A DNA stretch of 64,000 nt from Candidatus Latescibacterota bacterium (GCA_965248265.1 CBDFJF010000002.1:1504001-1568000), one strand, 5' to 3'. Shown: positions 18,475-41,744, counted from the stretch's first letter. Numbers and translations: made by a program. Notes: generated from the sequence alone by a model not told the origin.

Positions 18475-19629
18475 ATGGCGGAAACAGACTCTGTAGAGTT
18501 ACACATTGGCACCCAAAAGCCACGCGGCAAATGGTGTACGGACGGCTCTATCGAGTTGTCGGAGCGTGATTTGCAGCCTGACGCTCGAGTTGGAGACAGG
18601 CTTGTAACGGCACCAGCCGGCGCGATTCGAGCCGGGATAAACACGCGCTCAGAGACCACCAGCACCGGCGAGGAATTTCACGCCACAACCGACGGAAACG
18701 TGCAAATCGACAAGAACGAGATAAGGATCGTGCCTCTTCTGGCCGTCGACACCGATATCGGATACGACACCGGCAATCTGGATTTTGAGGGGGATGTCTT
18801 CGTCAAGGGTGGCATCGGACGAGGATACTCAGTCAAGGCTGGTGGCAGTGTGGTCGTCGCCGGCAGCGTCGCCGAGGGATCATCGGTGATGGCAAAGGGC
18901 GATGTCATCGTGTGCCAAGGGATCGAAGGCCGCAAGACCAAGGTGATTGCCGTCGGTGACGTGCGCACACTGCACGTTTTGGAGGCGACCGTCCATTGCG
19001 CCGGCGACCTTACGGTCGGCAATCACGTCAAGGATGCCCATCTGCGCTGCGGCGGCCTGCTGACGGTCGACAAGGGCGAGGGCAATCTGGGTGGCAGCAT
19101 CGCCGGTGGGCAGTCCTGGGGCCGCAAAGGAGTGGAAGTGCACCAAGCGGGTAGTCCGACCGGAGCGTCGACGGCCCTGAATGCCGGTCTGCAGCCGGAC
19201 CAGGCCGGTCAACTCGACGCGCTGCAAAAGAAGATGAGCGAGCTCGGAAAGCAGATCGATCGGCACCTGTCACGCTTCCAACTGGAAGTCGTTGATGTGC
19301 CGCAGATTCAGAAAATGATAGCCGCCTCGACGGGGCCGCAGCGGAAGTTACTGGCGCGCGCAGCCAAGCAGCTGGGCGAATTATTGCAGATGAACCAGCG
19401 GCTACTAGATGAGCGTGGCGAGATCGAGAACAAGATGACCCGGTCGCTTTCGGGTGCCAAGATCAGGATAGCCGAGAAGGTGTACCCGGGCGTTGAGGTG
19501 CGTCTGGGTGACCACAAGCGGCGGCTGAAGGAAGCAGCGGAGGCGCTCTTGTTCTATGTGGAAGGCGAAGAACTGCGGGAAACGGCGCCAACCGGTGGCG
19601 GCAATTTGCAGACTGAGGCGGAGTCATGA
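18475..19629 (+). CDS. FapA/DUF342 family protein, short form
   Basis: DGSIEL, DIGYDTGNLDFEGDVFVKG, beta-solenoid repeats, coiled coil, VYPGVEVRLG. Confidence 0.88.
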   Translation: MAETDSVELHIGTQKPRGKWCTDGSIELSERDLQPDARVGDRLVTAPAGAIRAGINTRSETTSTGEEFHATTDGNVQIDKNEIRIVPLLAVDTDIGYDTGNLDFEGDVFVKGGIGRGYSVKAGGSVVVAGSVAEGSSVMAKGDVIVCQGIEGRKTKVIAVGDVRTLHVLEATVHCAGDLTVGNHVKDAHLRCGGLLTVDKGEGNLGGSIAGGQSWGRKGVEVHQAGSPTGASTALNAGLQPDQAGQLDALQKKMSELGKQIDRHLSRFQLEVVDVPQIQKMIAASTGPQRKLLARAAKQLGELLQMNQRLLDERGEIENKMTRSLSGAKIRIAEKVYPGVEVRLGDHKRRLKEAAEALLFYVEGEELRETAPTGGGNLQTEAES

Positions 19630-21080
19630 GAGTGGTTGCAGCCATGCTGTGGCTGTGCGCCGTCCTGCCAGCCGACAGTACGCAGCGACTGGTGTTTGCC
19701 GCTGCCCAGACAACGGACGCCTACGCTGCCGCAGCGGTTCTGGAAGAAGCGTACGGCCGCTTGGGAATCGACATCGAGGTCGATTATCTCCCCGGACTTA
19801 CCGCACTGACCCAGGCTAACGCGGGGATGTATGACGGTGACGTCCAGCGGGTCGCCGGCCTGGAGCGCCAGTACCACAACCTGGCTCAATTGTCGATCCC
19901 GGTGAACTACCTGCACGGCGCGGCTTTCTCGAAACGACGCGATGTGGTGGTTGCCGGATGGTATAGTCTGCGACCCTACCGAATAGGGATAGTCAGCGGA
20001 ATCAAGTTTGCAGAGGCAGGGACGCGCGGAATGGATGTGCGTGTCGGCGATTCGTACGTCGACCTGCTGGCATGGGTCGAGGCCGACCAGATCGACTTCG
20101 CGATCATGCCAGTCATCAACGGTCTTGTAGCCTTGAAGTCCCTCGAGGATTCTCGAATTCAGCAAGCCGGCGTCGTGCTCGAGACCTTGTTTCTCTACCA
20201 CTATGTCAACAAGAAGCACCAGGAACTCGTGCCGAGGCTAGAAAAAGTTTTGAACCAGATGTTGACGGAGCGGGCAACCAAGCGCATACGGGACGAGCTC
20301 TACGCAGATCTACTGGGCATCGAAGTAGCGGATCTGGAGCGCGCGGGGACTCCCTCTCGTCAGTCGGTCGACTCATCGGCTCCTATTGCTGCTCGTCAGC
20401 CAGGTAACGAATCTCGGCAGGGAGCCACCAAGCGTCTCGAATTCTCCACGAGCGCTGAGTCTCGTGAGACGGAAGCCGCTGCCGCGGTTCTGCGAGAGGC
20501 GTACCGACGGCTCGGTTACGAGATCGAGCTCCGCAAGTATGAGGGGCACTCCGGGTTGAGCCAGGCGAACGCAGGTTTGGTCGACGGAGAGCTCATGCGC
20601 ATCGATGGACTCAGCCGACGCTATGACAATCTGGTGCAGATTTCGATTCCATTGAACTACGCCCCCATGGTCGTGTTCGCGCGAGACGCAGACTTTAACG
20701 TCGGGGGCTGGAATAGCCTGCAACCGTACCGAATCGGAATTGTCCAAGGAGTTCTCCTGAGTGAACAGGGAACGCGCGGCATGGACACGCGCCCCGCCGA
20801 TTCGTTTGACCAACTGGTTCGATGGTTGGCCAACGGCAAGATCGATGTTGCCGTAACGCTGCGCGTGAGCGGTCTGATGACCCTGCGGGACTATCCTGAC
20901 TCCGGTGTCCGGGAGCTACCGGGTATGCTGGAAACGATATTTCTCTACCACTACCTGCATTCGAAAAACACCGGCCTCGTCCGTGACGTGGAGCGGGTGT
21001 TGAAGAGCATGCTCCTCGATGGCACGCTGAGGAATATTCACGAGCAATCATACGCCACTCTGCTCGGGACGAAATCCTGA
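19626..21080 (+). CDS. Periplasmic solute-binding protein with two tandem SBP_bac_3-like domains
   Basis: Signal peptide; duplicated VL.EAY.RLG...QANAG..DG...R..GL...Y.NL and LET.FLYHY; ATGA overlap with the fapA-like gene. Confidence 0.85.
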   Translation: MRVVAAMLWLCAVLPADSTQRLVFAAAQTTDAYAAAAVLEEAYGRLGIDIEVDYLPGLTALTQANAGMYDGDVQRVAGLERQYHNLAQLSIPVNYLHGAAFSKRRDVVVAGWYSLRPYRIGIVSGIKFAEAGTRGMDVRVGDSYVDLLAWVEADQIDFAIMPVINGLVALKSLEDSRIQQAGVVLETLFLYHYVNKKHQELVPRLEKVLNQMLTERATKRIRDELYADLLGIEVADLERAGTPSRQSVDSSAPIAARQPGNESRQGATKRLEFSTSAESRETEAAAAVLREAYRRLGYEIELRKYEGHSGLSQANAGLVDGELMRIDGLSRRYDNLVQISIPLNYAPMVVFARDADFNVGGWNSLQPYRIGIVQGVLLSEQGTRGMDTRPADSFDQLVRWLANGKIDVAVTLRVSGLMTLRDYPDSGVRELPGMLETIFLYHYLHSKNTGLVRDVERVLKSMLLDGTLRNIHEQSYATLLGTKS

Positions 21081-21084
21081 CGCC

Positions 21085-24000
21085 ATGGAAAAGCCAGTAA
21101 CACAGGGCCAAATCCAGGTTCGCTCGATCGTCATATTGATCGCCGTTGTGTTGACGGTGACCGCGTGTGGTTTCTATGTGGTGTACCAACAAACGCTTGA
21201 GGGGCGCAAGGTGCAGCTGCAGGAGCTTGTTCGCTCTCAGGCGCGACTGATGGAAGCGGTCGGCAAGTTTGACGCCTTCTTCCACAGCGGCTTGGAAGCG
21301 GGCGCGAGCATGGCGGCCACTCTCAGCCAGTTCAAGGAGGCGCATCGCAAGTACACGGGCTTCGGTGAAACCGGCGAGCTGGTGCTGGGGCAAAGGAGAG
21401 AACATCAGATCGAGTTCCTGCTTCCGGTGCGAAGCCGCGACTTCCAGATTCCGCCTCCGGTACCATGGGACGGAGAGCTAGCAGGGCCGATGCGGTTGGC
21501 GCTTTCCGGCCAGTCAGGTGTGGTGGAAGCCCTCGACCACTCGTCGAACAACGTGTTGGCCGCCTACGAGTACCTCCCGTTTCTGGAACTAGGGCTCGTT
21601 GCCAAGATCGATAAGTCCGAGATCCTCACACCCTTCAAACGCGCGGCTGAGGCTTCAGGCATCATCGCCTTAATCGCCATAGGCATCGCGACGCTGCTCA
21701 ATGTTCGCAGCGTGGGACCATTGATCCGCAGTGTTACTGAGCGTGAACAGAACATTCGCACCCTCCTGGAGTCGACGCCGGACGGGATGGTGATCGTGGG
21801 CACCGATGGCCTGATCACGATGGTCAATGGCCGCACTGAAGTGTTGTTTGGGTACCATCGAACCGAGCTGATCGGTCAGCCCGTGGAGATGCTGGTGCCG
21901 GAGCGTTTCAAGGATCAACATCCCTCTCATCGGTCCGACTATCACGACCACCCAAGCTTGCGGGAAATGGGAGCAGGCATGGAACTCCTGGGATGCCGCA
22001 AGGATGGCAGCGAGTTTCCTGTCGAGATCAACCTGAGCCACATCAGCTCCGGCGGACAGACGCAGGTACTGTCAGTAGTCCGCGATATTACCGCTCGAAA
22101 GGAAGCAGAGAGAGAGCTTAAGAAGCTATCCCGTGCCGTTGAGGAGAGCCCGGCAGCCGTGTTCGTGACCGATCGCGACGGACGAATCGAATATGTCAAC
22201 AAGGTGTTCACCGACATCACTGGATATTCATTGGACGATGTCGTCGGCCAAAACCCGAGGCTGCTCAAATCCGGCGACCAGTCACCAGAGTTCTATCAGG
22301 AACTCTGGGACACGATCCTCGCCGGTCGGGCCTGGAGCGGGGAGATGGTCAACCACACCAAGGATGGGCACGACTTCTGGGCCAGTGAGCTAATTTCTCC
22401 ACTCACCGATGACGGTGAGGTGACCCACTTCGTCGCCGTTATGGAGGACATAAGCGCACGCAAGAAAGCAGAGGCACACGAGCACATTATCCACAGGGCC
22501 TCGCAGATGGCAGCAGAGACTGATTCGTTCGAGGCTTCCCTTCAGATGTGCGTCGATATCATCTGCGAGATGACCGGGTGGCCCGTCGGTCACGCCTACC
22601 TGGCCCCGAATGAGGAAACCGGCGGCGAGCGCCTGCAACCGACTGAAATCTGGCATTGTGACAGTCAGCGTCACGCCGAGTTCAAGGAAGTGACTGAGCG
22701 CACCGAATTTGCCAGTGGCGAGGGACTGCCCGGTCGCATCTGGGAATCGGGGGAGGCCGCCTGGGTCGTCGATGTTCAGAAAGACCCGAACTTTCCTCGC
22801 GCCAAACTGTGCGAAGAAATCGGTGTGTGCGGGGCTTTCGGATTCCCGATCAAGATTCGGGAAGAGACGGTCGCTATCCTCGAATTTTTCGCCGAGAGGG
22901 AGATGTCCTCCGACGAGGATCTGCTGCGAACGGTGGAAACAGTCGGGGAGCAGGTGGGGCGCGTGCTAGAGCGTCGCCGTGCGGAGAAGGCGATCAGGGA
23001 GAGCAAGAACTTCCTCCTCAGCGTCATCGACAACACTTCGGCGGCCATCTACGCCAAGGACCTGGATGGAGGGTACCTATTGGTCAACCGAACTCTGGCT
23101 GACATGGTCGGTGTTGAGCCGTCGGCAATGGTCGGCAGGACGCCCTTCGACTTTTTTCCGCCTGCTGTCGCCGAGCAGCATCTGGCCAACGACCGCCGAG
23201 TCGTCGAGGCAGGACAATCTTTGATCGAGGAGGAGCAAGCCGTCGTCGATGGGGTCGAGCGGACATTCCTCTCCATAAAGTTCCCGATCGTTGATTCGGG
23301 TGGTGATGTGAGCGCCATATGTGGCATGTCCACGGACATTTCAGAGCGCAAGCAAATGGAGCGGGATTTAGTGCTCGCCAAAGAGCAGGCCGAGTCCGCC
23401 ATGCAGGCGGCAGACGACGCCAATGCTTCCAAGAGCTTGTTCGTGGCCAATATGTCGCATGAGATCCGCACACCCATGAATGCGATCCTCGGGTTCTCGG
23501 AGATTCTTGGGGGGCTGGTTCGCGATGCACAGCAACGGCAATTCTTGGCGTCGATTCAGTCGAGCGGAAAATCCCTGCTGGGATTGATCAACGACATCCT
23601 GGACCTGTCCAAAGTGGAGGCAGGGAAGCTGGACCTCGATTACCGAGCTTTCGACGTCGCGGCTGTGTTTCGTGAGATGGAAGCCATATTTGCGCAGAAG
23701 ATCGCCGAGAAAGGGATTGACTTCGTCATCGAAATCGATCCGTCCGTGCCGAAGGCGCTGATACTGGATGAAACTCGTTTGCGGCAGATCCTGCTCAACA
23801 TCATCGGCAATGCGATCAAGTTCACGGACGAGGGTCACGTTGCACTGACCGCATTGAAGACGAATCCGGAGGCAGATGGCAGCAAGGTCGATCTCGTGTT
23901 TTCGATTCAGGACACCGGTGTCGGCATTCCCGAGGACCAGCAGGACAAGATCTTCGGGGCCTTCGAGCAGACGAAGGGGCAGAGCTACACCAAGTTCGGG

Positions 24001-24897
24001 GGCACCGGCCTCGGCCTGGCGATCACGAAGAGGCTGATCGAGATGATGAATGGCGACGTCACGGTGACGAGCCAACTCGGGGTGGGAAGCACCTTTCAGG
24101 TCGCGTTGCGAGGCGTGGATGTCGCTGCCATCGATGAACTGGCTGACGATGACGACCGTGCCAGTATTCAAGGGCTCGCGTTCGCCAGATCCAAGATCTT
24201 GCTCGTAGACGACATCGAGACCAACCGACAGCTGGTGTTGGCCTATCTACAGGAATATGACTTCGAAATGCTGGAGGCGACTAACGGTCAGGAAGCCGTT
24301 GATCAGGCAAAGAGGTATCATCCCGACCTTGTCTTGATGGATATGCGCATGCCGGTGATGAGCGGGTACGACGCTACTATCGCAATCAAAGATGATGACA
24401 AGACCAAGGATGTTCCAGTGGTGGCGTTGACCGCCTCTGTGATGAAGCACGACGAGGGCAAGGTTCGCGAGGTGTGCGACGGGTACCTGCACAAACCGGT
24501 GACCAAAGCACAGCTGGTCATGGAGTTGACGCGGTTCCTTCAACACACGCAGTCTGCGGCAGCGGCTGAGATGGCAGACCAGGTCTCCGCGGGCGCCCAG
24601 TGGGCACCGGAATCGCTGGACGACTCAGCGCGCGACAAAATTGGCGGGCTGGTGAAACAGCTTGAAGAACAACGTGCTGCGTGGGAGGATATCAGTGCCA
24701 CGCTGACGATCAATGACATCGAGGCATTCGCGGGGGGTATGCGGGAACGGGCCGCAGAGTTTGACTACCCACCTCTGCAGGAATGGGCACAGCGGCTGGC
24801 AGATCAAGCGAGCCAATTCGACCTGGCGGCGATGCCGGCAACGCTGGGGGAATTCCCCACCGTAATCGAGCAGGCCCAGAAGGTGGCGAAGGGATAG
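21085..24897 (+). CDS. Hybrid sensor histidine kinase (TM/Cache-like, PAS, PAS, GAF, PAS, HisKA, HATPase, REC, helical tail)
   Basis: [39 protein letters not shown]; GEGLPGRIW in the GAF. Confidence 0.95.
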   Translation: MEKPVTQGQIQVRSIVILIAVVLTVTACGFYVVYQQTLEGRKVQLQELVRSQARLMEAVGKFDAFFHSGLEAGASMAATLSQFKEAHRKYTGFGETGELVLGQRREHQIEFLLPVRSRDFQIPPPVPWDGELAGPMRLALSGQSGVVEALDHSSNNVLAAYEYLPFLELGLVAKIDKSEILTPFKRAAEASGIIALIAIGIATLLNVRSVGPLIRSVTEREQNIRTLLESTPDGMVIVGTDGLITMVNGRTEVLFGYHRTELIGQPVEMLVPERFKDQHPSHRSDYHDHPSLREMGAGMELLGCRKDGSEFPVEINLSHISSGGQTQVLSVVRDITARKEAERELKKLSRAVEESPAAVFVTDRDGRIEYVNKVFTDITGYSLDDVVGQNPRLLKSGDQSPEFYQELWDTILAGRAWSGEMVNHTKDGHDFWASELISPLTDDGEVTHFVAVMEDISARKKAEAHEHIIHRASQMAAETDSFEASLQMCVDIICEMTGWPVGHAYLAPNEETGGERLQPTEIWHCDSQRHAEFKEVTERTEFASGEGLPGRIWESGEAAWVVDVQKDPNFPRAKLCEEIGVCGAFGFPIKIREETVAILEFFAEREMSSDEDLLRTVETVGEQVGRVLERRRAEKAIRESKNFLLSVIDNTSAAIYAKDLDGGYLLVNRTLADMVGVEPSAMVGRTPFDFFPPAVAEQHLANDRRVVEAGQSLIEEEQAVVDGVERTFLSIKFPIVDSGGDVSAICGMSTDISERKQMERDLVLAKEQAESAMQAADDANASKSLFVANMSHEIRTPMNAILGFSEILGGLVRDAQQRQFLASIQSSGKSLLGLINDILDLSKVEAGKLDLDYRAFDVAAVFREMEAIFAQKIAEKGIDFVIEIDPSVPKALILDETRLRQILLNIIGNAIKFTDEGHVALTALKTNPEADGSKVDLVFSIQDTGVGIPEDQQDKIFGAFEQTKGQSYTKFGGTGLGLAITKRLIEMMNGDVTVTSQLGVGSTFQVALRGVDVAAIDELADDDDRASIQGLAFARSKILLVDDIETNRQLVLAYLQEYDFEMLEATNGQEAVDQAKRYHPDLVLMDMRMPVMSGYDATIAIKDDDKTKDVPVVALTASVMKHDEGKVREVCDGYLHKPVTKAQLVMELTRFLQHTQSAAAAEMADQVSAGAQWAPESLDDSARDKIGGLVKQLEEQRAAWEDISATLTINDIEAFAGGMRERAAEFDYPPLQEWAQRLADQASQFDLAAMPATLGEFPTVIEQAQKVAKG

Positions 24898-24901: not shown

Positions 24902-25453
24902 ATGAAACAATCAAACTGCGTCTACTGGCACGTCCCGCTCGGGAAGTGGTGTGCGATCGCAGCCATTTTCGCATTTCTGGCTGAGGCCGGGGCTCAAGAG
25001 GAATGGTTTCCGCACATGAAGGACGCCTACTGGCTGGCCGTCAACTACGGCATTGCCGATGAAGCCCAACGGCTGGGCGTGCGCATGGATTCGAAAGAAG
25101 CAGGGGGGTACGAAAACCTCGATGCCCAGATCGCCCAGGTACAGGAGTGTGCGACCGGCGGAGCGGACGGAGTGATTCTGGCCGCGATCTCGTACACCGG
25201 TTTGGACAGCATCGTAGCTGCTCTGGCCGAGCAGGGCATCCCTGTGGTGGACAATATCAACGGCATGGCGTCGGAACGCATTGCGGCCAAGTCTCTGGTC
25301 TCTTTTGGCGAGATGGGGTATAAGGCTGGACATGACTGTTTGCCCGTTGGCAATGGGGCGACCGTGTCGTCGACGCGGCTGGCATGTTCGACATGGTCGA
25401 GATATCGCGCAACCTGGTCTGCTACAGTGACGTCATCCACCAACTGGCAATGA
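24902..25453 (+). pseudogene. torT: Truncated TorT-like periplasmic binding protein
   Basis: FPHMKDAYWLAVNYG...EAGGYENL...VSFGEMGYKAG; similarity stops near 25330. Confidence 0.7.
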
Positions 25454-25463
25454 AGGAGCGCGC

Positions 25464-31489: not shown

Positions 31490-31810
31490 ATGGCATGGGT
31501 CTACACCGCGGTCGCCCTCGGCATGCTGGGGATATTGCTTGAAATCGGTCGCTCTTATAGCAAGACGAGCAAGCAGTTGATTCTCGAGCAGAAGGACCTG
31601 TACCGGGAAATCGGGAATCACCGAAATTCGATCAACGTGCTGGAACGTGATAGGAAGACCGGCGAAGACTCAGTGGCGCGCTTGACGATGGAGAAGGGAG
31701 AGGTCTCGAAAGAGCTCAACTGGCAGCGTCAGAATCTGGACGATCTCTTGCGCAGAGACGCTGGCACTCGCCTGGGCCGCCCCAAGATCGATCGGGACGA
31801 GAAGGAATAG
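31490..31810 (+). CDS. Small protein, N-terminal TM plus coiled coil
   Basis: Hydrophobic N-terminus then heptad-rich charged region; operon position. Confidence 0.7.
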   Translation: MAWVYTAVALGMLGILLEIGRSYSKTSKQLILEQKDLYREIGNHRNSINVLERDRKTGEDSVARLTMEKGEVSKELNWQRQNLDDLLRRDAGTRLGRPKIDRDEKE

Positions 31811-31822: not shown

Positions 31823-32119
31823 ATGGAAACCGCCGCCCTGATTGCCGCACTACTGCTGGCTCTGATTAGTGGGGTAGCCAAGTTCAGCAGCAGTTTGCAT
31901 CTGAGCAGGCTGCGCCGACAGAACACCGAGCTGATGAATGAGCGTGATCTCCTGCAGGGACAACGCTCGGCGCTGGAGACGGCACTGGTGGACGTACAGA
32001 AAGAGGCGCGTGACTTGGGCAACGAGTGCAGGTCGCTCTCGGACAACCTGAGGACTGTCGAAGTGGAGATCGAGAGACTCACGGACGAGGCAGATCATCC
32101 GATCGACGACGGTCACTAG
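31823..32119 (+). CDS. Small protein, N-terminal TM plus coiled coil
   Basis: Same architecture; 12 bp after the previous stop. Confidence 0.7.
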   Translation: METAALIAALLLALISGVAKFSSSLHLSRLRRQNTELMNERDLLQGQRSALETALVDVQKEARDLGNECRSLSDNLRTVEVEIERLTDEADHPIDDGH

Positions 32120-32132: not shown

Positions 32133-33017
32133 ATGACAGCGAAAATCTACGCCGTCCTCTGGATCGCGATAGCCGCTGCGGGCGTGACCGGCATGTACAA
32201 TGTCTACGCCCTCGTGATCTCGGTGAGGCACATGAATCTGACGCGCGAGGTCGAGTTGGAGATGCTCAGCTGTCGCCGCTACGAGATGGATTTCGTGGCT
32301 ACCGAGGATACGAATCTGCTCGACAAACACGCAGCCGCATTCGAACGGGTCGCTGGCGGGGCGCGGCGTCTCGAGGTCGCTATACCGGATGTTTCGGTGC
32401 TCCGTCACCTGGAGATCTACCGACTGGCCTTTCAGGATATGGTCAAAGCCATGACGGAAGTGGGGTTGAGCGAAGAGGACGGTCTGAGGGGCCGGCTACG
32501 TGCGTCCATTCACGACGTCGAGGAAGCGCTGCAGGGCCGGGACGATCTCGTCAACCTGGTTCTGATGTGTCGGAGGCACGAAAAGGACTTCATCATCAGA
32601 AACAAGGAAGTGAATGTGGAGAGGTTCGAGCGCAGTGCCGACGAGCTGTTGCGTGCCGTCCTGATGACTGATCTGGCCGCAGGTGGACAGTTTCTCATTC
32701 CCGACATGATCGTGACCTACCGCGAGTCGTTCAGGAGCCTGGTAGATCGTATGGTGGAAGTCGGCCTTGACGAAGGCCAGGGCCTGAGAGGCAAGATGCG
32801 TGATGCGGTCGACCAAACAAATGCGATTTTCGCGCAGCTGCACCGACTCGCAGAGGTAGAGCGTCAGCGTACCCTCAGGAGCTCTATTGGAGTCGCAGGG
32901 GTCATGGTCGCGCTGATGGGCATCGCTGCCGGATTGCTGGTCAGTGCCAGGAGGAAGGTGGTCGCTCTGCATACTGAAGCCGCCCCGAGGCCGGAAGCGG
33001 TGGACGGTGGGAATTAA
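32133..33017 (+). CDS. Stand-alone membrane sensor (HBM-like chemoreceptor ligand domain) with no signalling domain; may be truncated
   Basis: TM, ML.CRR.E.DF twice, GL.E..GLRG..R twice, TM, short tail. Confidence 0.7.
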   Translation: MTAKIYAVLWIAIAAAGVTGMYNVYALVISVRHMNLTREVELEMLSCRRYEMDFVATEDTNLLDKHAAAFERVAGGARRLEVAIPDVSVLRHLEIYRLAFQDMVKAMTEVGLSEEDGLRGRLRASIHDVEEALQGRDDLVNLVLMCRRHEKDFIIRNKEVNVERFERSADELLRAVLMTDLAAGGQFLIPDMIVTYRESFRSLVDRMVEVGLDEGQGLRGKMRDAVDQTNAIFAQLHRLAEVERQRTLRSSIGVAGVMVALMGIAAGLLVSARRKVVALHTEAAPRPEAVDGGN

Positions 33018-33033: not shown

Positions 33034-33234
33034 ATGTCAGTCAACTCCATTATTGACGCCAAGATCAGGGGCGCAACCAGTTCTTGGATCATCCGTTTCT
33101 ATCTACTAGCCCATGTATTGGCCGCGCCGCTAGTGGCCCAGACTCCTTCTCCCGTTCAGGTGAAGAGTGCCTACGTATACAACTTCCTCAAGTATGTGAC
33201 CTGGCAGGAAGAACGTTCCGGCTCCATCTCCTGA
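33034..33234 (+). pseudogene. N-terminal fragment of a YfiR/DUF4154 family protein
   Basis: Signal-like segment then QVKSAYVYNFLKYVTW, stop 9 codons later. Confidence 0.7.
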
Positions 33235-33240
33235 GAAATT

Positions 33241-36200
33241 TCAGAGTTCTTTGGTATTCGCCGCAGAGTCTGGAGTGATCCGAAGTTGTGGAATCGCGTC
33301 GCAGGCAGCTTCCAGGGCAGTGCGAGCTGCTTCCAGATTCCACACCTCCATCGGACCCTTCACGTCCGTGAAGTAGTCTCCGAGCGAGGCCTCAAGGAGG
33401 CTCTCCGATTCCTGGAAGACGTCGAGCGCGGCGCTGTCACCTTCAGAGAGATTATCGTGTAGCGCCTGGATCGCATCGCTCGCAGCATCCCAATCTATCT
33501 CAACGGCCAACGGCACCTGTGTATCATCCTGCCGCTCCGGAATCGCATCGCGAATTCGGTTGACGACTACGTCGAGCTCACTCTCAAGCGTAGACAATCG
33601 GGCTTCGACGTCCTGGCCGTCGCGGATGGCTGCTTCGACCTGTGCGGCCTGTTCCTGAACGGCAGTCGCACCGATCGTGCCTGCGACACCCTTGAGGGAA
33701 TGGGCGGTGCGCTCGGCTCCTTCGCTGTCATCCTTCTCGAGCAGCGCCTTGATCGTTGCGACGCTGTGGAGCTCATCTCCTTCGACGAACTGGCGCAGCA
33801 GGTTTTCGTAGAGCGCCGTTTTACCGAGCACGCGACGCAGCCCGGCCTGCGTGTCGAGGCCGGGGATATCGAAGGACCCGTTTGAAGTCTCTGTCCGTGG
33901 TTGCTGTGACGCGGCCACTTCATCCTTTTGTGCGTCCTCGATCTGGTCGAGTTGAATGAAATTGAGCAGGGCGTTGAAAAGCACGGAGGGCTCAATCGGC
34001 TTGGCGATGTGGTCGTTCATACCAGCTGCACGCGTCCTCTCGCGGTCCTTTTCCATGGCGTTCGCCGTCATGGCCAGGATTGGCAAGTCGGCGAAGTCAG
34101 GATTCTTGCGGATCTCTCTGGTGGCGGTGACTCCGTCCATCACCGGCATCTGCATGTCCATGAGGACGACATCGTAGTCGGTCTCGCCGACCATGCGGAC
34201 GGCTTCCTCTCCATTCTCAGCGAGATCCACTTCGAGGCCAGCTTCTTTGAGCAGTTCCATCGCCACCTGCTGGTTGAGTTCGTTGTCTTCGACCAGCAGG
34301 ATCCGTGCCCCCGCGATCGAGCCGATGCGATCTTCCCAATCCTCGTGTTGTTGTTCCTGCTCGGTAGCGACGGCGCCGCCAAGGGCACGAATGGAAGCAT
34401 CGAATAGTTGTGATTGGGTAACCGGTTTCGTAAGGACGGTGCGGATGCCGGCTTGCTCCGCTTCGTTGACCACCTCGGACCGGCCATAGGCCGTCACCAT
34501 GACCCTTTGCGGTTCGTGTGCAGCACCCAGCGCTGCGATTCGCCGGCCGGCTTCTATGCCATCGATGCCGTCGAGTTTCCAGTCGAGGAAGACGATATCG
34601 TAGGGATCACTGCCGCTGTTTTGATCGCGGACAGCGTCGACTGCCTCCTCCCCAGAGCTGACGACGTCCGCTCTGAAGGACATGGAAGTCAACATCGTGG
34701 ACAGGATCTCACGAGCGCTGTCGTTGTCGTCCACCACCAGGACACGCCGATCTCTCAGGTCGGGGTCAGGTACCCGGTCACGCCGGGAGGTCGCTGCCTT
34801 GCCAATCCCAGCCGTGAACCAGAAGGTGCTGCCCACACCCTGCTGGGAAGCCACGCCGACTTCCCCGCCCATCGCTTCAGCCAATCGTTTCGAGATGACC
34901 AGACCGAGTCCGGTGCCACCGTACTTTCGGGTGGTGCTGGTATCGGCCTGAGCGAAGGACTCGAACAGCTTGCTTCGCTGCTTCTCGGTCATGCCAATTC
35001 CGGTGTCCTCGACCTCGAAGCGGACAAACAGATCGCGTTCCCGCTCTTCCAGGATCCGGGCGCGCACGACGATCTCACCCGCTTCGGTAAACTTGACCGC
35101 GTTGGTGGCGTAGTTAATCAGAATCTGGCCGATTCTCAGCGGGTCTCCAATCAGATTGCCGGTCAGATTCGGGTCGACGTCAAAGATCAGCTCCAGTCCC
35201 TTGGCAGACGATTTCTCCCCAATCAGGCTGGCTACATTATCAAGAACCTCTTCGATATTGAACTCGATCTCTTCGATTTCGAGCTTTCCAGACTCAACCT
35301 TCGAAAAATCGAGGATATCATTGATGATTCCCAGCAGATGCTGGCCAGAGCTGTGAATCTTGGCGACGTAGTCCTTCTGTTTGGCATCGAGGTTGGTTCT
35401 CAACGCCAGATGGGCCATGCCAATGATGGCGTTCATCGGAGTCCGAATCTCGTGTGACATGTTAGCGAGAAAATCGGCTTTCGTCTGTGCCGACGATTCT
35501 GCGGCCTCACGAGCCGCCTCGGTCGACACTGTCATGCGATTGAAGGTGCGGACGATGACGAACATCAGGACGAGACCGACCATGAGTGCAATGGTGCCGA
35601 TACCGGAGACGATGTAGGTGCTCAGCGTGTTGCGTTCCTGCAACTGCGGACCGATGGTGTCCTGCACTCCTTTGATGTCGAGCTTTACGTCCTCGACGTT
35701 CTTGGCAATTTCTGGCCCCAGGCGGTCCAGAGTTTCAGTGATGATGGAGTTGCGCTCGAAGATTATGTCGACCAGGTCTTCGAACGTCGTGCGGTATTCG
35801 TCGAACGCCACCAGGACCGAGAGGAGCATTTCCCGCCGGTGTTCGTTGTCGAGGTCGCCGTCGAGAGTGTCCAGGCGCTTGTCGACAGCCGTGAACTCTC
35901 TGCGCACACGGTCGACGGAGGCCTGATCGTTGTTGACGAGGAACTTGGTCACGTAGAGACGTGCCAGCAGGAGGTGTTTCATCGCCAACCCGGCGTGGAA
36001 AGCGGCCGCCATGTCGTGGCTCTCCTCCGCCGAGGTCATGATCGCCGTGAGGTTTACCTCCATGTACGGTCCGCGAACATCGAGGACCTTGAACACCGCG
36101 TCGTTGCGGCGCTCGCGCAGGGCGACAACCTGATCGAAGGCGTCGACATAATCCCTCAGGTTGAAGGCGACATTGTCAATCTGGGCCGCGCGTTCCTCCT

Positions 36201-36531
36201 TCGTTATCTCCTGCTGTGCCTCCTCCAGGAATCCGGCCATTCTGCGGTAGTAATCGGCGTACTGCTGCAGGTCCTTGTAGCTGCCAGTGATGATGAAGTC
36301 CTTCACGTTCATCCGGACCATCAGCATGTTGGCCTGCAGGCGGCCAGACAGGTTGGCGTCTCGAGCCATTTCGCGATAGCGGGTAAACCCGGATGAGGAA
36401 GTATCAATCACGTAATAGCTGATGCCTGATACCCCACTCAAGAGAACGAGGACTGCCGTAAAACCCCAGATCAGTCTGCGTCCCGCGGACGCAGACTGGG
36501 CTTGCCCTATCATCTGTCTGAGTTTCAGCAT
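33241..36531 (-). CDS. Unorthodox hybrid kinase (HBM-like sensor, HisKA, HATPase, REC, REC, HPt)
   Basis: [47 protein letters not shown]. Confidence 0.95.
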
Positions 36532-36554
36532 GATCCCTCGAAAGCGTGGTAACG

Positions 36555-36570: not shown

Positions 36571-36780
36571 ACTTAGACGCGAAACTCGATATTATAGACA
36601 AAAGTGACCCCGATTGCCAAACCAAGACGCTCGGCATCTGCGCGTGCCCAGGACCGAGGAGTCGCCAGGCCCGGTGATGGCTCACACGCCAGCCTGCACG
36701 TAGCTTTTCGGTCGCGTGGTGAACCACTTCACTGGGTATCACAAAGAGGGTCTCAGCTCGGGGACCAGATCGAGGCACAT

Positions 36781-39459
36781 ATGACGCTCAGGCAAAAGCT
36801 CATCGGTACTCAGGCGCTGGCTGTGATCGCGGTATTGCTCGGGATGTCCTTCTATTACCAGTACAGCTCCCTGGCGGCGGAGCGCGAACTGGCAGACAAG
36901 CTAACAGCGACCGCCGATCTACTGGCCCAGAACACTGCAGCCGCAGTCGTGTTTCTCGACCCGGAGACGGCGAGCGAGATGCTGGCGTCGCTGCGGGTCG
37001 AGCAGCATGTGATGAACGCGTCCATCTACAACGAGGCCGGCGAGGTTTTCGCCAGCTACCAACGTGAGGACGTAACCGAGTTTTCCTTTCCTGCAGTGCA
37101 GACGTCCGGTACGACGCTCACCGAGGACCAGTTTGAGCTCTTCCATCCACTGACGTCTGGAGGCGTGTCGGTCGGCACCGTGTACCTGCGCTCGAACTTG
37201 ACGTGGCTCGAGACAAGGCGTCGAGAACTCCTCCAGCAAACCGTCATTCTACTTTGTCTCGGTGGAGGGATCTCCACCCTTTTGTTGTTGTTGTTGCAGC
37301 GATCGATCGCTGGACCCCTGCGCCGACTCTCGGAGGCCAGTGCGCGCGTTGCCGAGAGCAGTGAGCACACCCAGGTGGAAGGTGGTGGTACCGACGAATT
37401 GGAGGCTCTGGCCACGGCCTTCAACCAGATGGTGTCGCAGGTGCAGGCTCGAGACCGCTCATTGCGGGAAGCGCGCGACACACTTGAGCAGCGCGTGGAA
37501 GAGCGCACGACGGAGCTGCGGCAGGCCACGGAAGCGGTGCAGAAGGAGCTCGACGGCCGTCTCGCGGCCGAGGAACGCATCCAGGCGCTCGTTGACTCGG
37601 CGGCGGCGGGGATGCTGGTGGTCGATGGCCAGGGCCGGATGGCGCTCGTCAACGATTACTTCGTGTCCATGTTCGGCTACGAGCGCGACGAACTGATCGG
37701 GCAGCCTGCCGTGATGCTGGTTCCGGATGCGGCGCGCGAGATCCACGAGGGGGAACTGCACGATTTTCTGGATGACCCCGACGACCCTGGACAGGGACGG
37801 TTGAGGAGCCTGCACGGACGCCGAAAGGACGGCAGTGAGCTGCCTCTCGAGATCGGTATAGCGCCCATGGTCACGCAGGAGGGCACGTTCGTGTCGATGG
37901 TCGTCATCGATGTGACCGATCGCAAGCGGGCGATGGAGGAGCTGAATGCGGCGCGTGACCTGGCGGAGCGGACGAATGCGGCCAAGAGCGCCTTCATGGC
38001 CAACATATCGCACGAGCTTCGCACGCCGCTCAACGGCATCATCGGTGCCGGGGAGATCCTGCAACACGGTAGTTTCGGTCAGCTGTCGCCACAGCAACAC
38101 GAGTATGTCGGCACCGTGCTGGAGAGTGGACAGCAACTGCTCAAGTTGATCAACAACATCGTCGATGTGGCGAGGATGGAGTCCGGCGAACTGGCACTGG
38201 CACCGGGGGCGGTCGACCTAAAGAGGGTTCTCGGCGAACTGGAAGAATCCTTCGGCGTGCGCGCGGCCGAAAAGGGATTGGCGTTCAACATCGACCTCGA
38301 CGGAGAGGTGCCGCAGGCGATCGTCATCGATGGGCACAGGCTGCGTCAGGTGCTTGGCAGCCTCATCGACAACGGTATCAAGTTCACCAAAAGGGGTAGC
38401 GTCCTGCTGCAGGTGAAGAGCAGCACCGCTGCTGAGATAGGACAGTGCAACCTGACCTTCTGTGTGCGTGACACGGGCCCCGGCATCCCGGACGATCAGC
38501 AGCAGGGCATCTTCGAGGCCTTCGGGCAGCGCGAGGGCCAGAGTATCAACGAGTACGGTGGGGTCGGAGTCGGCCTGGCACTGACACGACGTATCGTCGA
38601 CAGCATGGGAGGCACAATCCATCTGCAAAGCGTCCTCGGCGTGGGCTCGACCTTTGAGGTCGTCCTGACCGAGGTCCCGACGGCGTCGTTGGAGGAGATC
38701 GCCGAGGAGGTCCCCCACGTCGACGCAGATCGCGTCACCTTCCACGCGGCAAAAGTGCTGGTGGCGGATGACGTGCACACCAACCGGCACCTGATCAGGG
38801 GGTTCCTGGAGACCTACGGTCTTGCGGTAGTGGAGGCGGATAACGGCGCCGAAGCGATCGACGCGGTGCGTCGCGAGTCGCCGGACCTGGTGCTGATGGA
38901 CGTCAAGATGCCGGTCCTCGACGGCTTCAAGGCGACGGAACGGCTGAAGGCGAACGAGGCGACGCGAGAGCTGCCCGTCATAGCCCTGACGGCGTCGGTG
39001 ATGCGTGAGTCGGAGACAGAGATCCGCGAGCTGTTCGACGGCTTCCTGCGCAAGCCGGTCGGCCGCGATCACCTCGTGGAGGAGTTGGCGCGCTTCCTCT
39101 CAAACGAAGACGCTGCCGCAGGGGAGGAGTTTGGCGCAGGCGCGGAGGGGCCGGTGTGGTCACCTGATACCCTGGACGATGCGATGCGGGCGCGGTTGCC
39201 GGAGCTGCAGGAGGTAGTGGACGGGGAACTGCAGACCGAATGGGAGGAGGCCAACCACACACAGATTCTCAACAATGTGGAGGCCCTCGGCGAGCGCGCT
39301 GGCGAGCTTGGCCGGGAGTACGGGTTCGAGCCGCTGCGCGACTGGGGCGAGCGCCTGCAGGTCCAGGCCAGCACCTTCCAGATGGACGCGATGCCGAAGA
39401 CGCTGGAAGAGTTCCCTGGAATGGTGTTGCAGTTGAGAGCAGCGGTGGAGGGGGCGTAG
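36781..39459 (+). CDS. Hybrid sensor kinase (CHASE8-like, HAMP, PAS, HK, REC, helical tail)
   Basis: LAQNTAAAVVFLD...ASIYNEAGEVFASY, DELEALATAFNQM, SHELRTPLN, LMDVKMP; ATG 36781 with GAGG upstream. Confidence 0.92.
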   Translation: MTLRQKLIGTQALAVIAVLLGMSFYYQYSSLAAERELADKLTATADLLAQNTAAAVVFLDPETASEMLASLRVEQHVMNASIYNEAGEVFASYQREDVTEFSFPAVQTSGTTLTEDQFELFHPLTSGGVSVGTVYLRSNLTWLETRRRELLQQTVILLCLGGGISTLLLLLLQRSIAGPLRRLSEASARVAESSEHTQVEGGGTDELEALATAFNQMVSQVQARDRSLREARDTLEQRVEERTTELRQATEAVQKELDGRLAAEERIQALVDSAAAGMLVVDGQGRMALVNDYFVSMFGYERDELIGQPAVMLVPDAAREIHEGELHDFLDDPDDPGQGRLRSLHGRRKDGSELPLEIGIAPMVTQEGTFVSMVVIDVTDRKRAMEELNAARDLAERTNAAKSAFMANISHELRTPLNGIIGAGEILQHGSFGQLSPQQHEYVGTVLESGQQLLKLINNIVDVARMESGELALAPGAVDLKRVLGELEESFGVRAAEKGLAFNIDLDGEVPQAIVIDGHRLRQVLGSLIDNGIKFTKRGSVLLQVKSSTAAEIGQCNLTFCVRDTGPGIPDDQQQGIFEAFGQREGQSINEYGGVGVGLALTRRIVDSMGGTIHLQSVLGVGSTFEVVLTEVPTASLEEIAEEVPHVDADRVTFHAAKVLVADDVHTNRHLIRGFLETYGLAVVEADNGAEAIDAVRRESPDLVLMDVKMPVLDGFKATERLKANEATRELPVIALTASVMRESETEIRELFDGFLRKPVGRDHLVEELARFLSNEDAAAGEEFGAGAEGPVWSPDTLDDAMRARLPELQEVVDGELQTEWEEANHTQILNNVEALGERAGELGREYGFEPLRDWGERLQVQASTFQMDAMPKTLEEFPGMVLQLRAAVEGA

Positions 39460-39503
39460 CCCATGGACCAGACGTGTCCTGCCGGGAGGATGGCCACCAG
39501 ACC

Positions 39504-41744
39504 ATGACCATTCGAGCGAAGTCCTTCCTGATCTTCATGCTCCTTGTTGCCGGCCTGCTGGTCGTGGTGTGGCAGACCTCGACGTCGATCTTGCTCGAAG
39601 ACTATGTCGCCCTCGAACAGGCCAAAGGTGAACAGAATCTGGAGCGTCTCAGGCGGTCGGTCGGGCAGGAGCTGTCGCAGATGGACCGGACAGCGAACGA
39701 TTGGGGCTCCTGGAACGAGACCTACGAGTTCGTCGCCGATTTGAATCCGGAATACATAGCGCAGAACATCACGCCAACGACCTACGATTCGTTGGGGATC
39801 ACTCTCAACCTGGCCCAATACCTCGACCTGGAGGGGCGTGTCGTCTTCGATCGTGGTTTCGACTTCCACCGTCACCAGTGGGTGGCAGCAGCGGATCTCA
39901 GCGACCACCACACTGAGGAGGGCCTCCTGCGCCCCCTCGCGCTGGACGAGGCCCTGTCGGGAATAGTCATGGTCGATGAGGGTCCCATGCTGACGATCGT
40001 GCGGTCGATCCTGACCAGCGCCGCGGAAGGTCCCAGCCGGGGCCGCATCGTCATGGGACGCTTGCTGGATGACAACGTGGTTCAGCATCTGGGCAGAACG
40101 ACGAGACTCGATGTCGTCGCCCACGAGTGGAATGCCGTCGACCTGCCGCCTGACGTCGAGTCGGCCCAGGACGAGCTGTCGAGCAAGACTCCGACGTCCG
40201 TCCAGTTCCCACGAGACGACTTAGCGCACGGCTATCTGCTGATCGACGACATCTACGGCGAGCCGGCGGTGATCCTAAAGGCGACGATGGATCGCGAGAT
40301 CTATCTCAGCGGCAAGTCGACGATCGAATTCCATATCGTGCTGCTCCTGGCGGGCGGGCTGGTCTGCGTCCTCATCTGTATGCTGTTCCTCGATCGGACC
40401 GTGCTGGTCCGACTGACTCGGCTGGTGAGCCAGGTCAACCAGATACGGGAGGACCGCAGCATTCGCATGGAGGCGCCTGGCAACGACGAGATCTCCGTCC
40501 TCGCCCGGCAGTTGAATGTTATGCTGACGGCCGTCGAGCAGGCGGAGGCGAACCTGCGCGAATCGAACCAGTCTCTGGAACGGCGAGTCGAGGAGCGCAC
40601 CGAGGAGCTGGCCGGCCTCAATAGACAGCTCGAGTCGGAGATGGTCGAGCGCAAGGCGGCCCAGCGCGAGGCGGAGGAGCAGGCCGAGGTGGCAGAGAAG
40701 GCCAATTACGCCAAGAGTGCCTTCCTGGCAAACATCAGTCACGAAGTCAGGACGCCGATGAATGCGATCCTCGGCTATTCTGACATCTTGCAGCGTGCCC
40801 TGACCGATCCACAGCAAAGGGGCTATTTGAGCTCCATCGACAGCAGCGGTCGGACCCTGATCAGCCTGCTGGAGAGCATCCTCGACTTCTCGAGGCTGCA
40901 GTCCGGCGATCTCGTCCTTGACACGTCCGCAATGCAAGTGCGAAGCCTGATCACCGATCTGGACCGATCGTTCGAGTCGGAAGCCGAAGCCAAGGGTTTG
41001 TCCTACTCCTCCAGCATCGCCGAAAACATCCCGGATGTTGTGCTGATGGACGAGAGTCGGGTCCGGCAGGTGTTGCTCAACCTGGTTGGAAACGCCATCA
41101 AGTTCACCGGATCCGGCACGGTGACCCTGCAGGTGACGGCTTCGGAGGATGCCTCAGGTGCGACGATCGTCTTCTCGATCCGTGATACGGGGATCGGGAT
41201 TGCGCCGGATCAGCAAGAGCGAATTTTCGGTGCCTTCGATCAGCAGGCCGGTCAGAGCATCAACGAATATGGTGGTACCGGCATGGGCCTCGCTCTGAGC
41301 AGGGGCCTCGCGACGTTAATGAATGGCGAAATTACCGTGGCGAGCGAACTTGGTGCGGGCAGTGAGTTCACCGTGACGATTCCCGGGGTGGAGGTGATCA
41401 CGCGTCCCACAGCTCCGCAGGAGATCGAAACTGATCAGGGACAGGTCAGCATCGATGTCGAGCTCTCAGATGACACCATCGCCGGGCTACCCGACCTGCT
41501 CGAGCGTCTGCAGTCGCAGACAGCGACGTTGGACTCGTTGACCGAGACGCTGACGATCAACGACCTGGAGTCGTTCGCGCGGAGCATGTCCAGCATGGGT
41601 CGAGAATTCGACTACCCACCCCTCGAGAACTGGGCGAACATCCTGGCGGAGCAGGTCCGTGGGTTCGACATGGACGCGATCCCGCACACGCTCCAGGCGT
41701 ATCTGGATGTGCAAGAGGCAATCAAAGCCCGTGTGGGTCGGTAG
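39504..41744 (+). CDS. Sensor kinase (CHASE4, HAMP, HK, helical tail) with no receiver domain
   Basis: DWGSWNETYEFV, ILTSAAEGPSRGRIVMGR, NDEISVLA, SHEVRTPMN, GNAIKFT. Confidence 0.92.
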   Translation: MTIRAKSFLIFMLLVAGLLVVVWQTSTSILLEDYVALEQAKGEQNLERLRRSVGQELSQMDRTANDWGSWNETYEFVADLNPEYIAQNITPTTYDSLGITLNLAQYLDLEGRVVFDRGFDFHRHQWVAAADLSDHHTEEGLLRPLALDEALSGIVMVDEGPMLTIVRSILTSAAEGPSRGRIVMGRLLDDNVVQHLGRTTRLDVVAHEWNAVDLPPDVESAQDELSSKTPTSVQFPRDDLAHGYLLIDDIYGEPAVILKATMDREIYLSGKSTIEFHIVLLLAGGLVCVLICMLFLDRTVLVRLTRLVSQVNQIREDRSIRMEAPGNDEISVLARQLNVMLTAVEQAEANLRESNQSLERRVEERTEELAGLNRQLESEMVERKAAQREAEEQAEVAEKANYAKSAFLANISHEVRTPMNAILGYSDILQRALTDPQQRGYLSSIDSSGRTLISLLESILDFSRLQSGDLVLDTSAMQVRSLITDLDRSFESEAEAKGLSYSSSIAENIPDVVLMDESRVRQVLLNLVGNAIKFTGSGTVTLQVTASEDASGATIVFSIRDTGIGIAPDQQERIFGAFDQQAGQSINEYGGTGMGLALSRGLATLMNGEITVASELGAGSEFTVTIPGVEVITRPTAPQEIETDQGQVSIDVELSDDTIAGLPDLLERLQSQTATLDSLTETLTINDLESFARSMSSMGREFDYPPLENWANILAEQVRGFDMDAIPHTLQAYLDVQEAIKARVGR

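Follow-up and report, generated by a model that had tools for sequence, protein, structure and literature searches.

A response regulator gene of REC-S-helix-GAF type lies directly upstream of a gene for FapA, a scaffold-type protein of the FapA/DUF342 family, in a signalling array of Candidatus Latescibacterota, and the pair recurs across two phyla, in 10 of the 11 related loci. Since the regulator stands beside FapA in both phyla, the end point of the signal is probably a scaffold protein and not a gene switch or an enzyme. We put the probability of the corresponding working scheme, in which one or more core kinases act through the regulator on FapA-long, at about one half. The array itself (positions 18475–41744) is genuine: five membrane sensor kinases are grouped with a single response regulator. 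The conserved unit within the array is shorter than its 23 kb. The window, i.e., the whole stretch of DNA analysed, comprised 64,000 nt of a 4.14-Mb contig (CBDFJF010000002.1:1504001-1568000).

The array contains two FapA/DUF342 paralogues, five intact sensor histidine kinases (four of them hybrid), one HPt and one stand-alone regulator, together with a tandem solute-binding protein (SBP), two small membrane coiled-coil proteins, an orphan two-TM sensor and two gene remnants:

18475..19629, + strand, FapA-short (384 aa): β-solenoid, helical hairpin and C-terminal part; no FapA_N
19626..21080, + strand, tandem SBP: periplasmic, two SBP_bac_3-like halves
21085..24897, + strand, hybrid kinase HK1270: 2 TM, 3 PAS, GAF, HisKA, HATPase, REC, C-terminal tail domain
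24902..25464, + strand, deletion scar: N-terminal third of a TorT-like binding protein, then the last ~33 tail-domain codons of a lost kinase
25464..28196, + strand, heme-c hybrid kinase: Tll0287-like domain with CXXCH, PAS, HisKA, HATPase, REC, tail
28217..29215, + strand, REC-GAF response regulator: REC, S-helix (ERT signature), GAF-like domain, acidic C-terminus
29251..31470, + strand, FapA-long (739 aa): acidic N-terminus, diverged FapA_N copy, FapA_N, MinC-like β-solenoid, helical hairpin
31490..31810, + strand, g08 (106 aa): N-terminal TM-like segment, charged helical remainder
31823..32119, + strand, g09 (98 aa): N-terminal TM-like segment, coiled-coil-like remainder
32133..33017, + strand, g10 (294 aa), orphan sensor: TM, ~210-aa helical domain with internal repeat, TM, 25-residue tail
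33034..33231, + strand, 5' remnant of a YfiR/DUF4154-type kinase gene: signal peptide and first ~22 domain positions
33241..36531, − strand, hybrid kinase g11: HBM-like sensor (weak), HisKA, HATPase, 2 REC, the only Hpt; no tail
36604..39459, + strand, hybrid kinase g12: CHASE8, HAMP, PAS, HisKA, HATPase, REC, tail; likely start 36781
39240..41744, + strand, non-hybrid kinase g13: CHASE4, HAMP, HisKA, HATPase, tail, no REC; likely start 39501

The ORFs and their Pfam and NCBIfam profiles bore out every gene named in an earlier sequence-only reading, which had overlooked the 183-aa TorT-like remnant (24902–25453). In the Pfam scan, 11 of the 13 array ORFs gave matches at E ≤ 0.01, and g08 and g10 gave none. 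The mostly co-directional, tight run that had been described was likewise found, with the ten genes g01–g10 all on the + strand at spacings of −4 to +35 nt; the stop of FapA-short overlaps the start of the SBP gene by 4 nt. As also claimed, Pfam detected a single Hpt and a single stand-alone regulator among the 13 ORFs and no HTH, GGDEF, EAL or HD-GYP domain, and this only stand-alone regulator carries no enzymatic or DNA-binding output domain. The H-box is intact in all five kinases, and the acceptor Asp is present in all six REC domains (five kinase-borne and that of the regulator). The starts of g12 and g13 are likely to be 36781 and 39501 rather than those of the longest ORFs, because of the position of the first TM segment. 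Rfam matches and tRNA genes were absent from the window.

The 11 related loci (L001–L011) were gathered by alignment to FapA-long, and the pairing rate therefore counts FapA-bearing loci only. L001–L004 are MAGs labelled Latescibacterota or Gemmatimonadetes, and L005–L010 are from Desulfobulbia; L011 carries a FapA that belongs to the wider FapA group of these loci but lacks a regulator gene in front of it. Where the starts are clear, the regulator and FapA genes are 4–35 nt apart. A kinase gene lies directly upstream of the regulator in all seven loci with upstream sequence (L001, L002, L004, L005, L006, L007 and L009). The gene after FapA varies by lineage (sulfatase, Glu-tRNA ligase, ABC permease), indicating that the conserved unit ends at FapA, and in nine of the ten paired loci a convergent gene begins close to the FapA stop, at a distance of up to about 90 nt. 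L004 keeps the whole order SBP, HK1270, heme kinase, REC-GAF, FapA-long, so this arrangement is more than chance: its SBP orthologue (54% identity) lies directly upstream of the HK1270 orthologue (HK918), and its kinase cores are 80% and 68% identical to those of HK1270 and the heme kinase. The heme kinase orthologues are 66% identical in L004 and 61–69% in L001, where the gene is frameshifted. In three further assemblies, orthologues of the regulator and FapA-long share longest-contig values (897378, 101410 and 13483), the first of which is also that of a FapA-short orthologue. Synteny in relatives had been set beforehand as one point on which the sequence-only reading was to be judged: the regulator–FapA core was conserved, and the coiled-coil genes g08 and g09 had no counterpart in the 11 loci. 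We read the region as a two-component signalling cluster whose core is conserved and whose periphery varies. In searches of full-text literature outside subscription journals, no paper turned up that describes a regulator–FapA pair or a REC-GAF partner of DUF342.

The adjacency could mean co-expression only, with FapA merely co-transcribed and the regulator acting elsewhere, either as a phosphate sink that serves the hybrid kinases or, by way of its GAF domain, as a binder of small ligands (cyclic nucleotides). We regard this as unlikely. Ligand binding is the typical role of GAF domains (PMC1592074), and three Desulfobulbia loci (L005, L007 and L009) have a gene for a REC + HD-GYP-like regulator 3–4 kb off. 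However, the 4–35-nt adjacency has held over two phyla while the kinase type and the other neighbours change, and a phosphate sink would leave the constant partnership with FapA unexplained.

The REC domain of the regulator scored 114.8 bits in Pfam. Its GAF_3 match (24.1 bits) was under the cut-off of 27, but orthologues exceeded it (32.0 in L001, 30.9 in L003, 33.4 in L005 and 34.1 in L007); those of L002 and L004 gave no GAF match at E ≤ 1e-5, and a PDB sequence search with the GAF part of the regulator returned nothing significant. In an alignment of 18 regulator sequences from two phyla, the acceptor and pocket positions D13, D14, D57, T87 and K109 were kept, as was the linker motif. Within this motif, the ERT signature (residues 146–148), R147 was nearly invariant and T148 invariant. 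An S-helix is a helix of ~40 residues that lies between two signalling domains and carries an ERT signature at its centre, and such helices join receivers to downstream domains, GAF among them (PMC1592074). The regulator has such an ERT-signature helix between REC and GAF, as in the receiver-S-helix-GAF class of Anantharaman et al. 2006, the passages on which describe the architecture and make no reference to function or FapA (PMC1592074).

Both FapA paralogues scored well above the PF03961 cut-off of 31 bits (167.7 for FapA-short and 181.9 for FapA-long). FapA-long also matched FapA_N (PF20250) at 109.8 bits, against a cut-off of 27, and a second, diverged FapA_N copy was found in its N-terminal extension (hhalign probability 96.8%, E 2e-10, 145 columns). 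FapA-short, which is 44% identical to residues 418–736 of FapA-long, lacks FapA_N, as do its orthologues P0048, P0050 and P0057. About 10 short, PF03961-only proteins resemble it at 34–94% identity, and in the tree it falls in a six-row clade (support 99/98) beside the core FapA-long clade. FapA-short is a solenoid-only paralogue with orthologues of its own. All FapAs with a REC-GAF gene upstream fall in one 25-row clade (support 88/84), nested in a 27-row group (91/97), gene context being known only for rows with loci. Orthologues of FapA-long are 36–56% identical to it. Its best relative reaches 54–56%, compared with 81–94% for the closest relatives of FapA-short and 84% (in the GAF part) for those of the regulator, which suggests that FapA-long evolves faster, or that its counterparts in the closest relatives are missing or unsampled.

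No motility, DNA-binding or c-di-GMP domain was detected anywhere in the 64-kb window. Motility genes were absent from its 47 ORFs (13 in the array and 34 flanking), as the earlier reading had claimed of the neighbourhood, and none of the 34 flanking ORFs belonged to a flagellar or chemotaxis family. In the eight loci scanned with Pfam, including L001–L005, L007 and L011 (the last over 5581–15211 only), there were no fla/che genes within 10 kb of FapA. The gene context of flagellar or chemotaxis operons, with flhF, flhG, fliA and flgV as neighbours, was seen neither among the 47 ORFs nor in the scanned loci. The sole match in the window with "Flg" in its name is an Ig-like domain that ends a C25 peptidase.

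To our knowledge, the widespread FapA/DUF342 family has been studied in three flagellated bacteria only, always as a flagellar accessory. The V. cholerae FapA is VCA1085 (PMC6877527). Vibrio FapA (V. vulnificus; VCA1085) combines FapA_N with a PF03961 solenoid, as does FapA-long, which differs in its second FapA_N copy. It is also of the scaffold type and is controlled by a signalling protein to which it binds in one phosphorylation state only, namely dephosphorylated EIIAGlc (PMC6877527, citing Park 2016). In the array, the candidate controller of FapA is instead the adjacent two-component regulator, and no HubP, PTS or flagellar genes are in view. FapA of Borrelia burgdorferi (bb0267, in a flgV-flhG-fliA-fapA sub-module) belongs to the same family. 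Genes of this type lie within flagellar operons, and canonical FapA genes sit in flagellar superoperons beside flhG and fliA (PMC11607428), whereas in the window and the 11 loci signalling genes lie upstream of FapA and unrelated genes downstream. The Helicobacter pylori FapA (HPG27_837) is a polar, motor-associated cytoplasmic β-solenoid that shapes behaviour rather than motor assembly; unlike the array FapAs, it does not match PF03961, and the survey reported with it describes flagellated genomes only and no regulator pairing (preprint 10.64898/2026.10.23.761471).

Could the FapA pair serve a machine other than the flagellum, as the sequence-only reading considered possible? Candidates would be the control of division sites or of polarity by means of the MinC-like solenoid, or some other complex of the envelope, g08 and g09 being the membrane anchors. 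The lack of fla/che genes in the 64 kb and near FapA in the scanned loci fits this idea, as does the position of the FapA-long clade outside flagellar operons. The first turns of the FapA-long solenoid also show a weak sequence likeness to the C-terminal domain of MinC (MinC_C, 22.7 bits in Pfam; PDB 1hf2, E 0.002), though far under the family cut-offs. However, no MinD/ParA-type ATPase lies near the array, the proposed anchors are absent from all 11 loci, and the window is only 64 kb of the genome. VCA1085 is presumably located outside the main V. cholerae flagellar clusters, so that distance from fla genes proves little. Genes for flagella and pili have been reported in single-cell genomes of the phylum to which the array belongs (PMC4454575). 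A non-flagellar role thus appears rather improbable.

In the working scheme, for which we infer the phosphoryl route, the regulator–FapA binding and the target, the core consists of one or more membrane sensor kinases, then the REC-S-helix-GAF regulator, and then a FapA with two FapA_N domains and a MinC-like β-solenoid. The kinases would respond to cues from both the periplasm and the cytoplasm, detecting a solute by way of the tandem SBP and redox by way of heme c, with further inputs from the ligands of the CHASE4, CHASE8 and HBM-like domains, and would control whether the regulator is phosphorylated at Asp57. For the non-hybrid kinase g13 this step would be direct, and the hybrid kinases would go through the g11 HPt or another HPt elsewhere in the genome. 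Phosphorylation of Asp57 is predicted to shift the dimeric S-helix and GAF pair, which would alter binding to FapA-long and thereby its position or assembly. FapA-long would then act on a cell-envelope machine, most likely the polar flagellar apparatus by family precedent, while the FapA-short solenoid may pair with, or compete against, that of FapA-long. If this is true, the conserved pair provides an upstream input for the FapA/DUF342 family, and a scaffold protein joins the few non-transcriptional, non-enzymatic outputs of two-component systems.

Relays in which many kinases converge on one regulator include Vibrio LuxQ/CqsS–LuxU–LuxO and the GacS network. Like these, the array combines several hybrid kinases that differ in their sensors with one HPt and one regulator; unlike in these, the regulator has no DNA-binding or AAA+ output, and the HPt, which forms part of one kinase, does not recur consistently near the regulator in relatives. 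The g11 Hpt (43.5 bits, cut-off 24.6, His present) was otherwise found in L001 HK1153, whose core is 70% identical and which is the only orthologue of g11 in the loci; kinases in the neighbourhoods of L002 and L004 had no Hpt at E ≤ 1e-6, though one may be encoded elsewhere in those genomes. A single HPt as the general route is therefore not upheld. Of the convergent relay with a protein–protein output through FapA that had been proposed, the regulator–FapA linkage stands, and neither the single HPt as general route nor the coiled coils as conserved output find support.

The SBP (SBP_bac_3, 28.7 bits) is a true internal duplication, its halves being 45% identical over 215 aa. The heme kinase has both features of a Tll0287-like heme-c sensor, a PF11845 match (49.6 bits, cut-off 24.1) and one CXXCH (residue 180). 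The "Cache-like" input previously assigned to HK1270 found no backing in Pfam or in a PDB sequence search with its periplasmic domain, which returned nothing significant; the "HBM-like" sensor of g11 did give a match, but at 20.1 bits against a cut-off of 29.8.

Four of the array kinases share a C-terminal tail of ~95 residues, delineated by profile and alignment (profile matches E 1e-37 to 1e-43):

24580–24894, + strand, tail of HK1270
27906–28193, + strand, tail of the heme kinase
39151–39456, + strand, tail of g12
41442..41741, + strand, tail of g13

Neither Pfam nor NCBIfam returned a match to the tail (at E ≤ 10 or E ≤ 1), and a PDB sequence search gave nothing significant. It is present in 3165 protein cluster representatives elsewhere, which excludes a tail specific to the FapA pathway; 50 long representatives had HATPase_c (50), HisKA (49), REC (35) and Hpt (2). 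A degenerate HPt was rejected on sequence grounds, with hhalign probabilities of 0.06% and 0.2% and a top His frequency of 12.5% in any column of 136 segments. By phmmer, a g11-like HPt segment immediately precedes the tail in L001 HK1153 and in about 15 of the best 150 tail matches, so the tail is an added module and not an HPt replacement. The idea that the C-terminal 112 residues of g11 are a decayed tail was dropped as well (hhalign 10.7, within the range of 6.9–19.6 for 20 shuffles). The tail is a separate lead, an unannotated domain at the HPt position in thousands of kinase clusters. We tentatively suggest, while inclining somewhat to doubt, that the REC-S-helix-GAF regulator and the tandem-FapA_N FapA together make up a two-gene output module for two-component systems, conserved in Latescibacterota-type bacteria and Desulfobulbia, with a β-solenoid scaffold as effector in place of a transcription factor or enzyme and a solenoid-only paralogue in one lineage, and that the feeding kinases carry a widespread, His-less C-terminal helical domain at the HPt position, which may serve docking or regulation in a large subfamily of kinases.

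Cassettes have been lost from the array, as two gene remnants show, and the kinase set is in flux. In the deletion scar, the junction lies near 25335 and is out of frame. The TorT-like ORF (g04) scored 125.4 bits against the NCBIfam TorT cut-off of 200, with the match limited to residues 36–144 (profile positions 54–159 of 346), and is thus not a full-length TorT equivalog; GC3 was 0.36 in the g04 frame versus 0.77 in the remnant frame. The tail profile matched at 25336–25464 (E 3e-6), and this DNA is 81% identical to the g13 tail. L002 holds an intact TorT and a tail-bearing kinase. The second remnant (33034–33231) matched DUF4154 (Pfam, E 2e-4) and the N-terminus of L001 HK1153 (38% over 52 aa, E 4e-10).

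That the 23-kb array is a pile-up of paralogous kinase cassettes signalling to unrelated partners elsewhere would fit the differing kinase content of each relative, the cassette loss, the lack of g12 and g13 orthologues in the related loci (cores 32–50% identical to others), the opposite strand and own promoter-like site of g11 (sigma-70-like, 11/12 at 36620–36591) and the broad occurrence of the tail, but is doubtful, given that g01–g10 are co-directional with gaps ≤35 nt, that the SBP-to-FapA-long block is syntenic in L004 and that there is a single regulator for five kinases.

The extra kinases and g08, g09 and g10 are proposed to be lineage-specific additions. In tblastn, the latter three had no homologues in the 11 loci (no match for g08; best E 4.9 for g09 and 0.14 for g10), so that a conserved output which includes the small coiled-coil membrane proteins, as had been suggested, or g10 is not supported. 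No Pfam or NCBIfam family was found for g08 or g10, and g09 had only sub-threshold coiled-coil matches in Pfam; membership of g08 and g09 in a known family is therefore unsupported, as is paralogy between the two (similarity E 2.6 only). A PDB sequence search with g10 gave nothing significant. The codon-position GC of g08 and g09 (GC3 0.75 and 0.73) is typical of coding sequence. The orphan sensor g10 is weakly similar to the sensor domain of g11 (24% over 216 aa, E 0.006), and the two share a 37-nt stretch that is 81% identical.

ORF listing combined with Pfam and NCBIfam scans confirmed the gene list that the sequence-only reading had drawn up for the array (18475–41744). Ten genes run on the plus strand from FapA-short (from 18475) to the orphan sensor g10 (end 33017), with spacings of −4 to +35 nt, and are followed by the kinase gene g11 on the minus strand and the kinase genes g12 and g13 on the plus strand. 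All five kinases have an intact H-box and two TM-like segments flanking a periplasmic domain. Four of the five are hybrids, and the acceptor Asp is kept in every REC domain of these four. Among the kinases, an Hpt domain was found in g11 only (Pfam, 43.5 bits), and the heme kinase has a Tll0287-like match (Pfam, 49.6 bits) and one CXXCH motif. The domain scan detected no DNA-binding, GGDEF, EAL or HD-GYP domains among the 13 ORFs of the array, flagellar and chemotaxis families were absent from the flanking ORFs of the 64-kb window (0 of 34), and Rfam and tRNA scans of the window gave no matches.

Related loci were collected through an alignment of FapA-long, which reduced 45 pattern matches to 11 confirmed loci, and these were compared by tblastn of the window proteins, crude gene calls and Pfam. 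The closest genomic relatives of FapA-long were found in MAGs, labelled as Gemmatimonadetes in one case and otherwise as Latescibacterota, with Desulfobulbia farther off. The REC-GAF regulator gene directly precedes FapA in ten of the 11 loci, the exception being L011, and a kinase lies upstream of the regulator in all seven loci that have upstream sequence. The gene order of L004 is that of the window (tandem solute-binding protein, HK1270, heme kinase, regulator, FapA), with kinase-core identities of 80% for HK1270 and 68% for the heme kinase. Downstream of FapA lie convergent genes of varying type (sulfatase, Glu-tRNA ligase, ABC permease); therefore, the conserved unit ends at FapA. The small membrane proteins, which the sequence-only reading had included in the system, were wrongly counted as part of the conserved unit. 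For g08, g09 and the orphan sensor g10, tblastn gave no counterpart in any of the 11 loci (no match, E = 4.9 and E = 0.14, respectively). Word-based protein searches gave indirect support, in that orthologues of the regulator and FapA-long apparently occur together in three assemblies, one of which apparently also has a FapA-short orthologue. Two kinase orthologues are split by frameshifts, that of the heme kinase in L001 (646–2983) and that of HK1270 in L004 (2347–5669), reflecting either assembly errors or pseudogenes.

Identity to the window regulator is 65–68% in L001, L002 and L004 and falls to 34% in L003; in the Desulfobulbia loci (L005–L010) it is about 27%, along almost the whole protein. 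Four of six neighbouring regulators scanned with Pfam had both REC and GAF at E ≤ 1e-5; those of L002 and L004 had no GAF match at this cutoff, yet are 65–66% identical to the window protein end to end. In an alignment of 18 regulators from both phyla, residues D13, D14, D57, T87 and K109 are kept, and in the linker an invariant Gly-Arg-Asp comes after an ERT signature. This ERT-bearing linker is the S-helix, an element described as always lying between a receiver on its upstream side and a domain with catalytic or ligand-binding function, such as GAF (PMC1592074). After the GAF-like domain, the regulator has only a short acidic C-terminus. The closest database relatives of FapA-short are 81–94% identical to it, and those of the regulator 84% in its GAF part, but identity reaches just 54–56% for FapA-long, which either evolves faster or is absent or unsampled among the closest relatives.

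In its N-terminal extension, FapA-long has a second, diverged FapA_N (hhalign 96.8%, E = 2e-10), and two FapA_N stretches are also present in the Desulfobulbia FapAs of L005 and L007. FapA-short aligns at 44% identity with the last 319 residues of FapA-long, and its orthologues, about ten, are short as well. A maximum-likelihood tree built on the C-terminal 330 residues (37 rows) places six short proteins in one clade (99/98) beside a core clade of 12 long proteins (100/98), both within a 25-row clade (88/84) with the L003 and Desulfobulbia proteins, which itself lies inside a 27-row group (91/97) that includes L011. Because the short clade is nested in the 25-row clade, we infer that FapA-short derives from a regulator-linked FapA through loss of the N-terminal half. 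A sequence search found no solved structure of the FapA family, the nearest being MinC (E = 0.002). Upstream of FapA-short, 17739–18444 (plus strand) may be a decayed gene; the two overlapping reading frames there encode peptides with no family match, the best being to GH32 N-terminal at E = 0.13.

We propose from sequence that several sensors would converge on the phosphorylation state of one S-helix regulator, whose output would be a protein contact, the only plausible kind. The best candidate for the partner is FapA with tandem FapA_N, the constant neighbour of the regulator. The regulator-to-FapA output of the sequence-only reading is probably right. As a precedent, Vibrio FapA is reported to bind EIIAGlc only in its dephosphorylated form and to require HubP for polar arrival (PMC6877527). 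Other studied FapAs are encoded within flagellar operons (PMC11607428) or associate with the motor (preprint 10.64898/2026.10.23.761471). The window shows no motility gene, although flagella are reported to be encoded in genomes of the same phylum (PMC4454575); an output independent of flagella, as the sequence-only reading suggested, is a possibility. Full-text literature searches found no description of the regulator–FapA pairing. In three of the Desulfobulbia loci, a REC + HD-GYP-like (HD_5) regulator is encoded on the minus strand 3–4 kb past the FapA gene, with ABC transporter genes between (L005, 14480–16033; L007, 14518–16071; L009, about 9663–10118, detected by tblastn only), a possible link to c-di-GMP.

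Four of the kinases have in common a C-terminal tail domain of ~95 residues.

Copies of the tail domain in the array
24580–24894, plus strand, tail of HK1270
27906–28193, plus strand, tail of the heme kinase
39151–39456, plus strand, tail of g12
41442–41741, plus strand, tail of g13

The tail is also present on all six kinases adjoining the regulator in L001, L002 and L004. It matched no Pfam or NCBIfam model and no PDB sequence. Searched against 1.84 billion representatives, a profile of the tail matched 3165 proteins at E ≤ 1e-3, of which 855 reached E ≤ 1e-10, and the match nearly always lay at the extreme C-terminus. Fifty long matches contained HATPase_c (50/50), HisKA (49/50), REC (35/50) and Hpt (2/50). 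We found no conserved His in the tail and no detectable likeness to HPt; the tail follows an HPt in L001 and in about 15 of the best 150 matches, and is sometimes present twice in tandem.

The array also retains traces of kinase turnover. At 24902–25464, a TorT-like gene is reduced to its N-terminal third, which runs out of frame into the ~33 final codons of a kinase tail, and the stop codon of this remnant overlaps the start codon of the heme kinase. The arrangement is a deletion scar, its tail codons stemming from a lost kinase; an intact TorT and kinase pair is kept in L002. A 5′ remnant of a kinase gene of the YfiR/DUF4154-domain type, resembling HK1153, the HPt-containing kinase of L001, occupies 33034–33231 (plus strand), where g10 is followed by the 3′ end of g11. 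The sensor part of g12 resembles the NCBIfam "kinase, YfiR-like protein-associated" model (138.8 bits, below the cut-off of 194), and neither g12 nor g13 has an orthologue in the related loci. The orphan sensor g10 may be derived from a g11-type kinase sensor. A motif common to g10 (32562–32598) and the g11 sensor domain (36288–36324) is seen at the DNA level, 81% over 37 nt and inverted.

Elsewhere in the window, four consecutive ORFs (203, 460, 232 and 225 aa) at 44345–47898 (plus strand) belong to no Pfam or NCBIfam family. The only "Flg"-named match of the window belongs to a C25 (gingipain-type) peptidase of 1878 aa (10638–16274, minus strand) that has a propeptide and ends in an Ig-like domain, and is not a flagellar gene.
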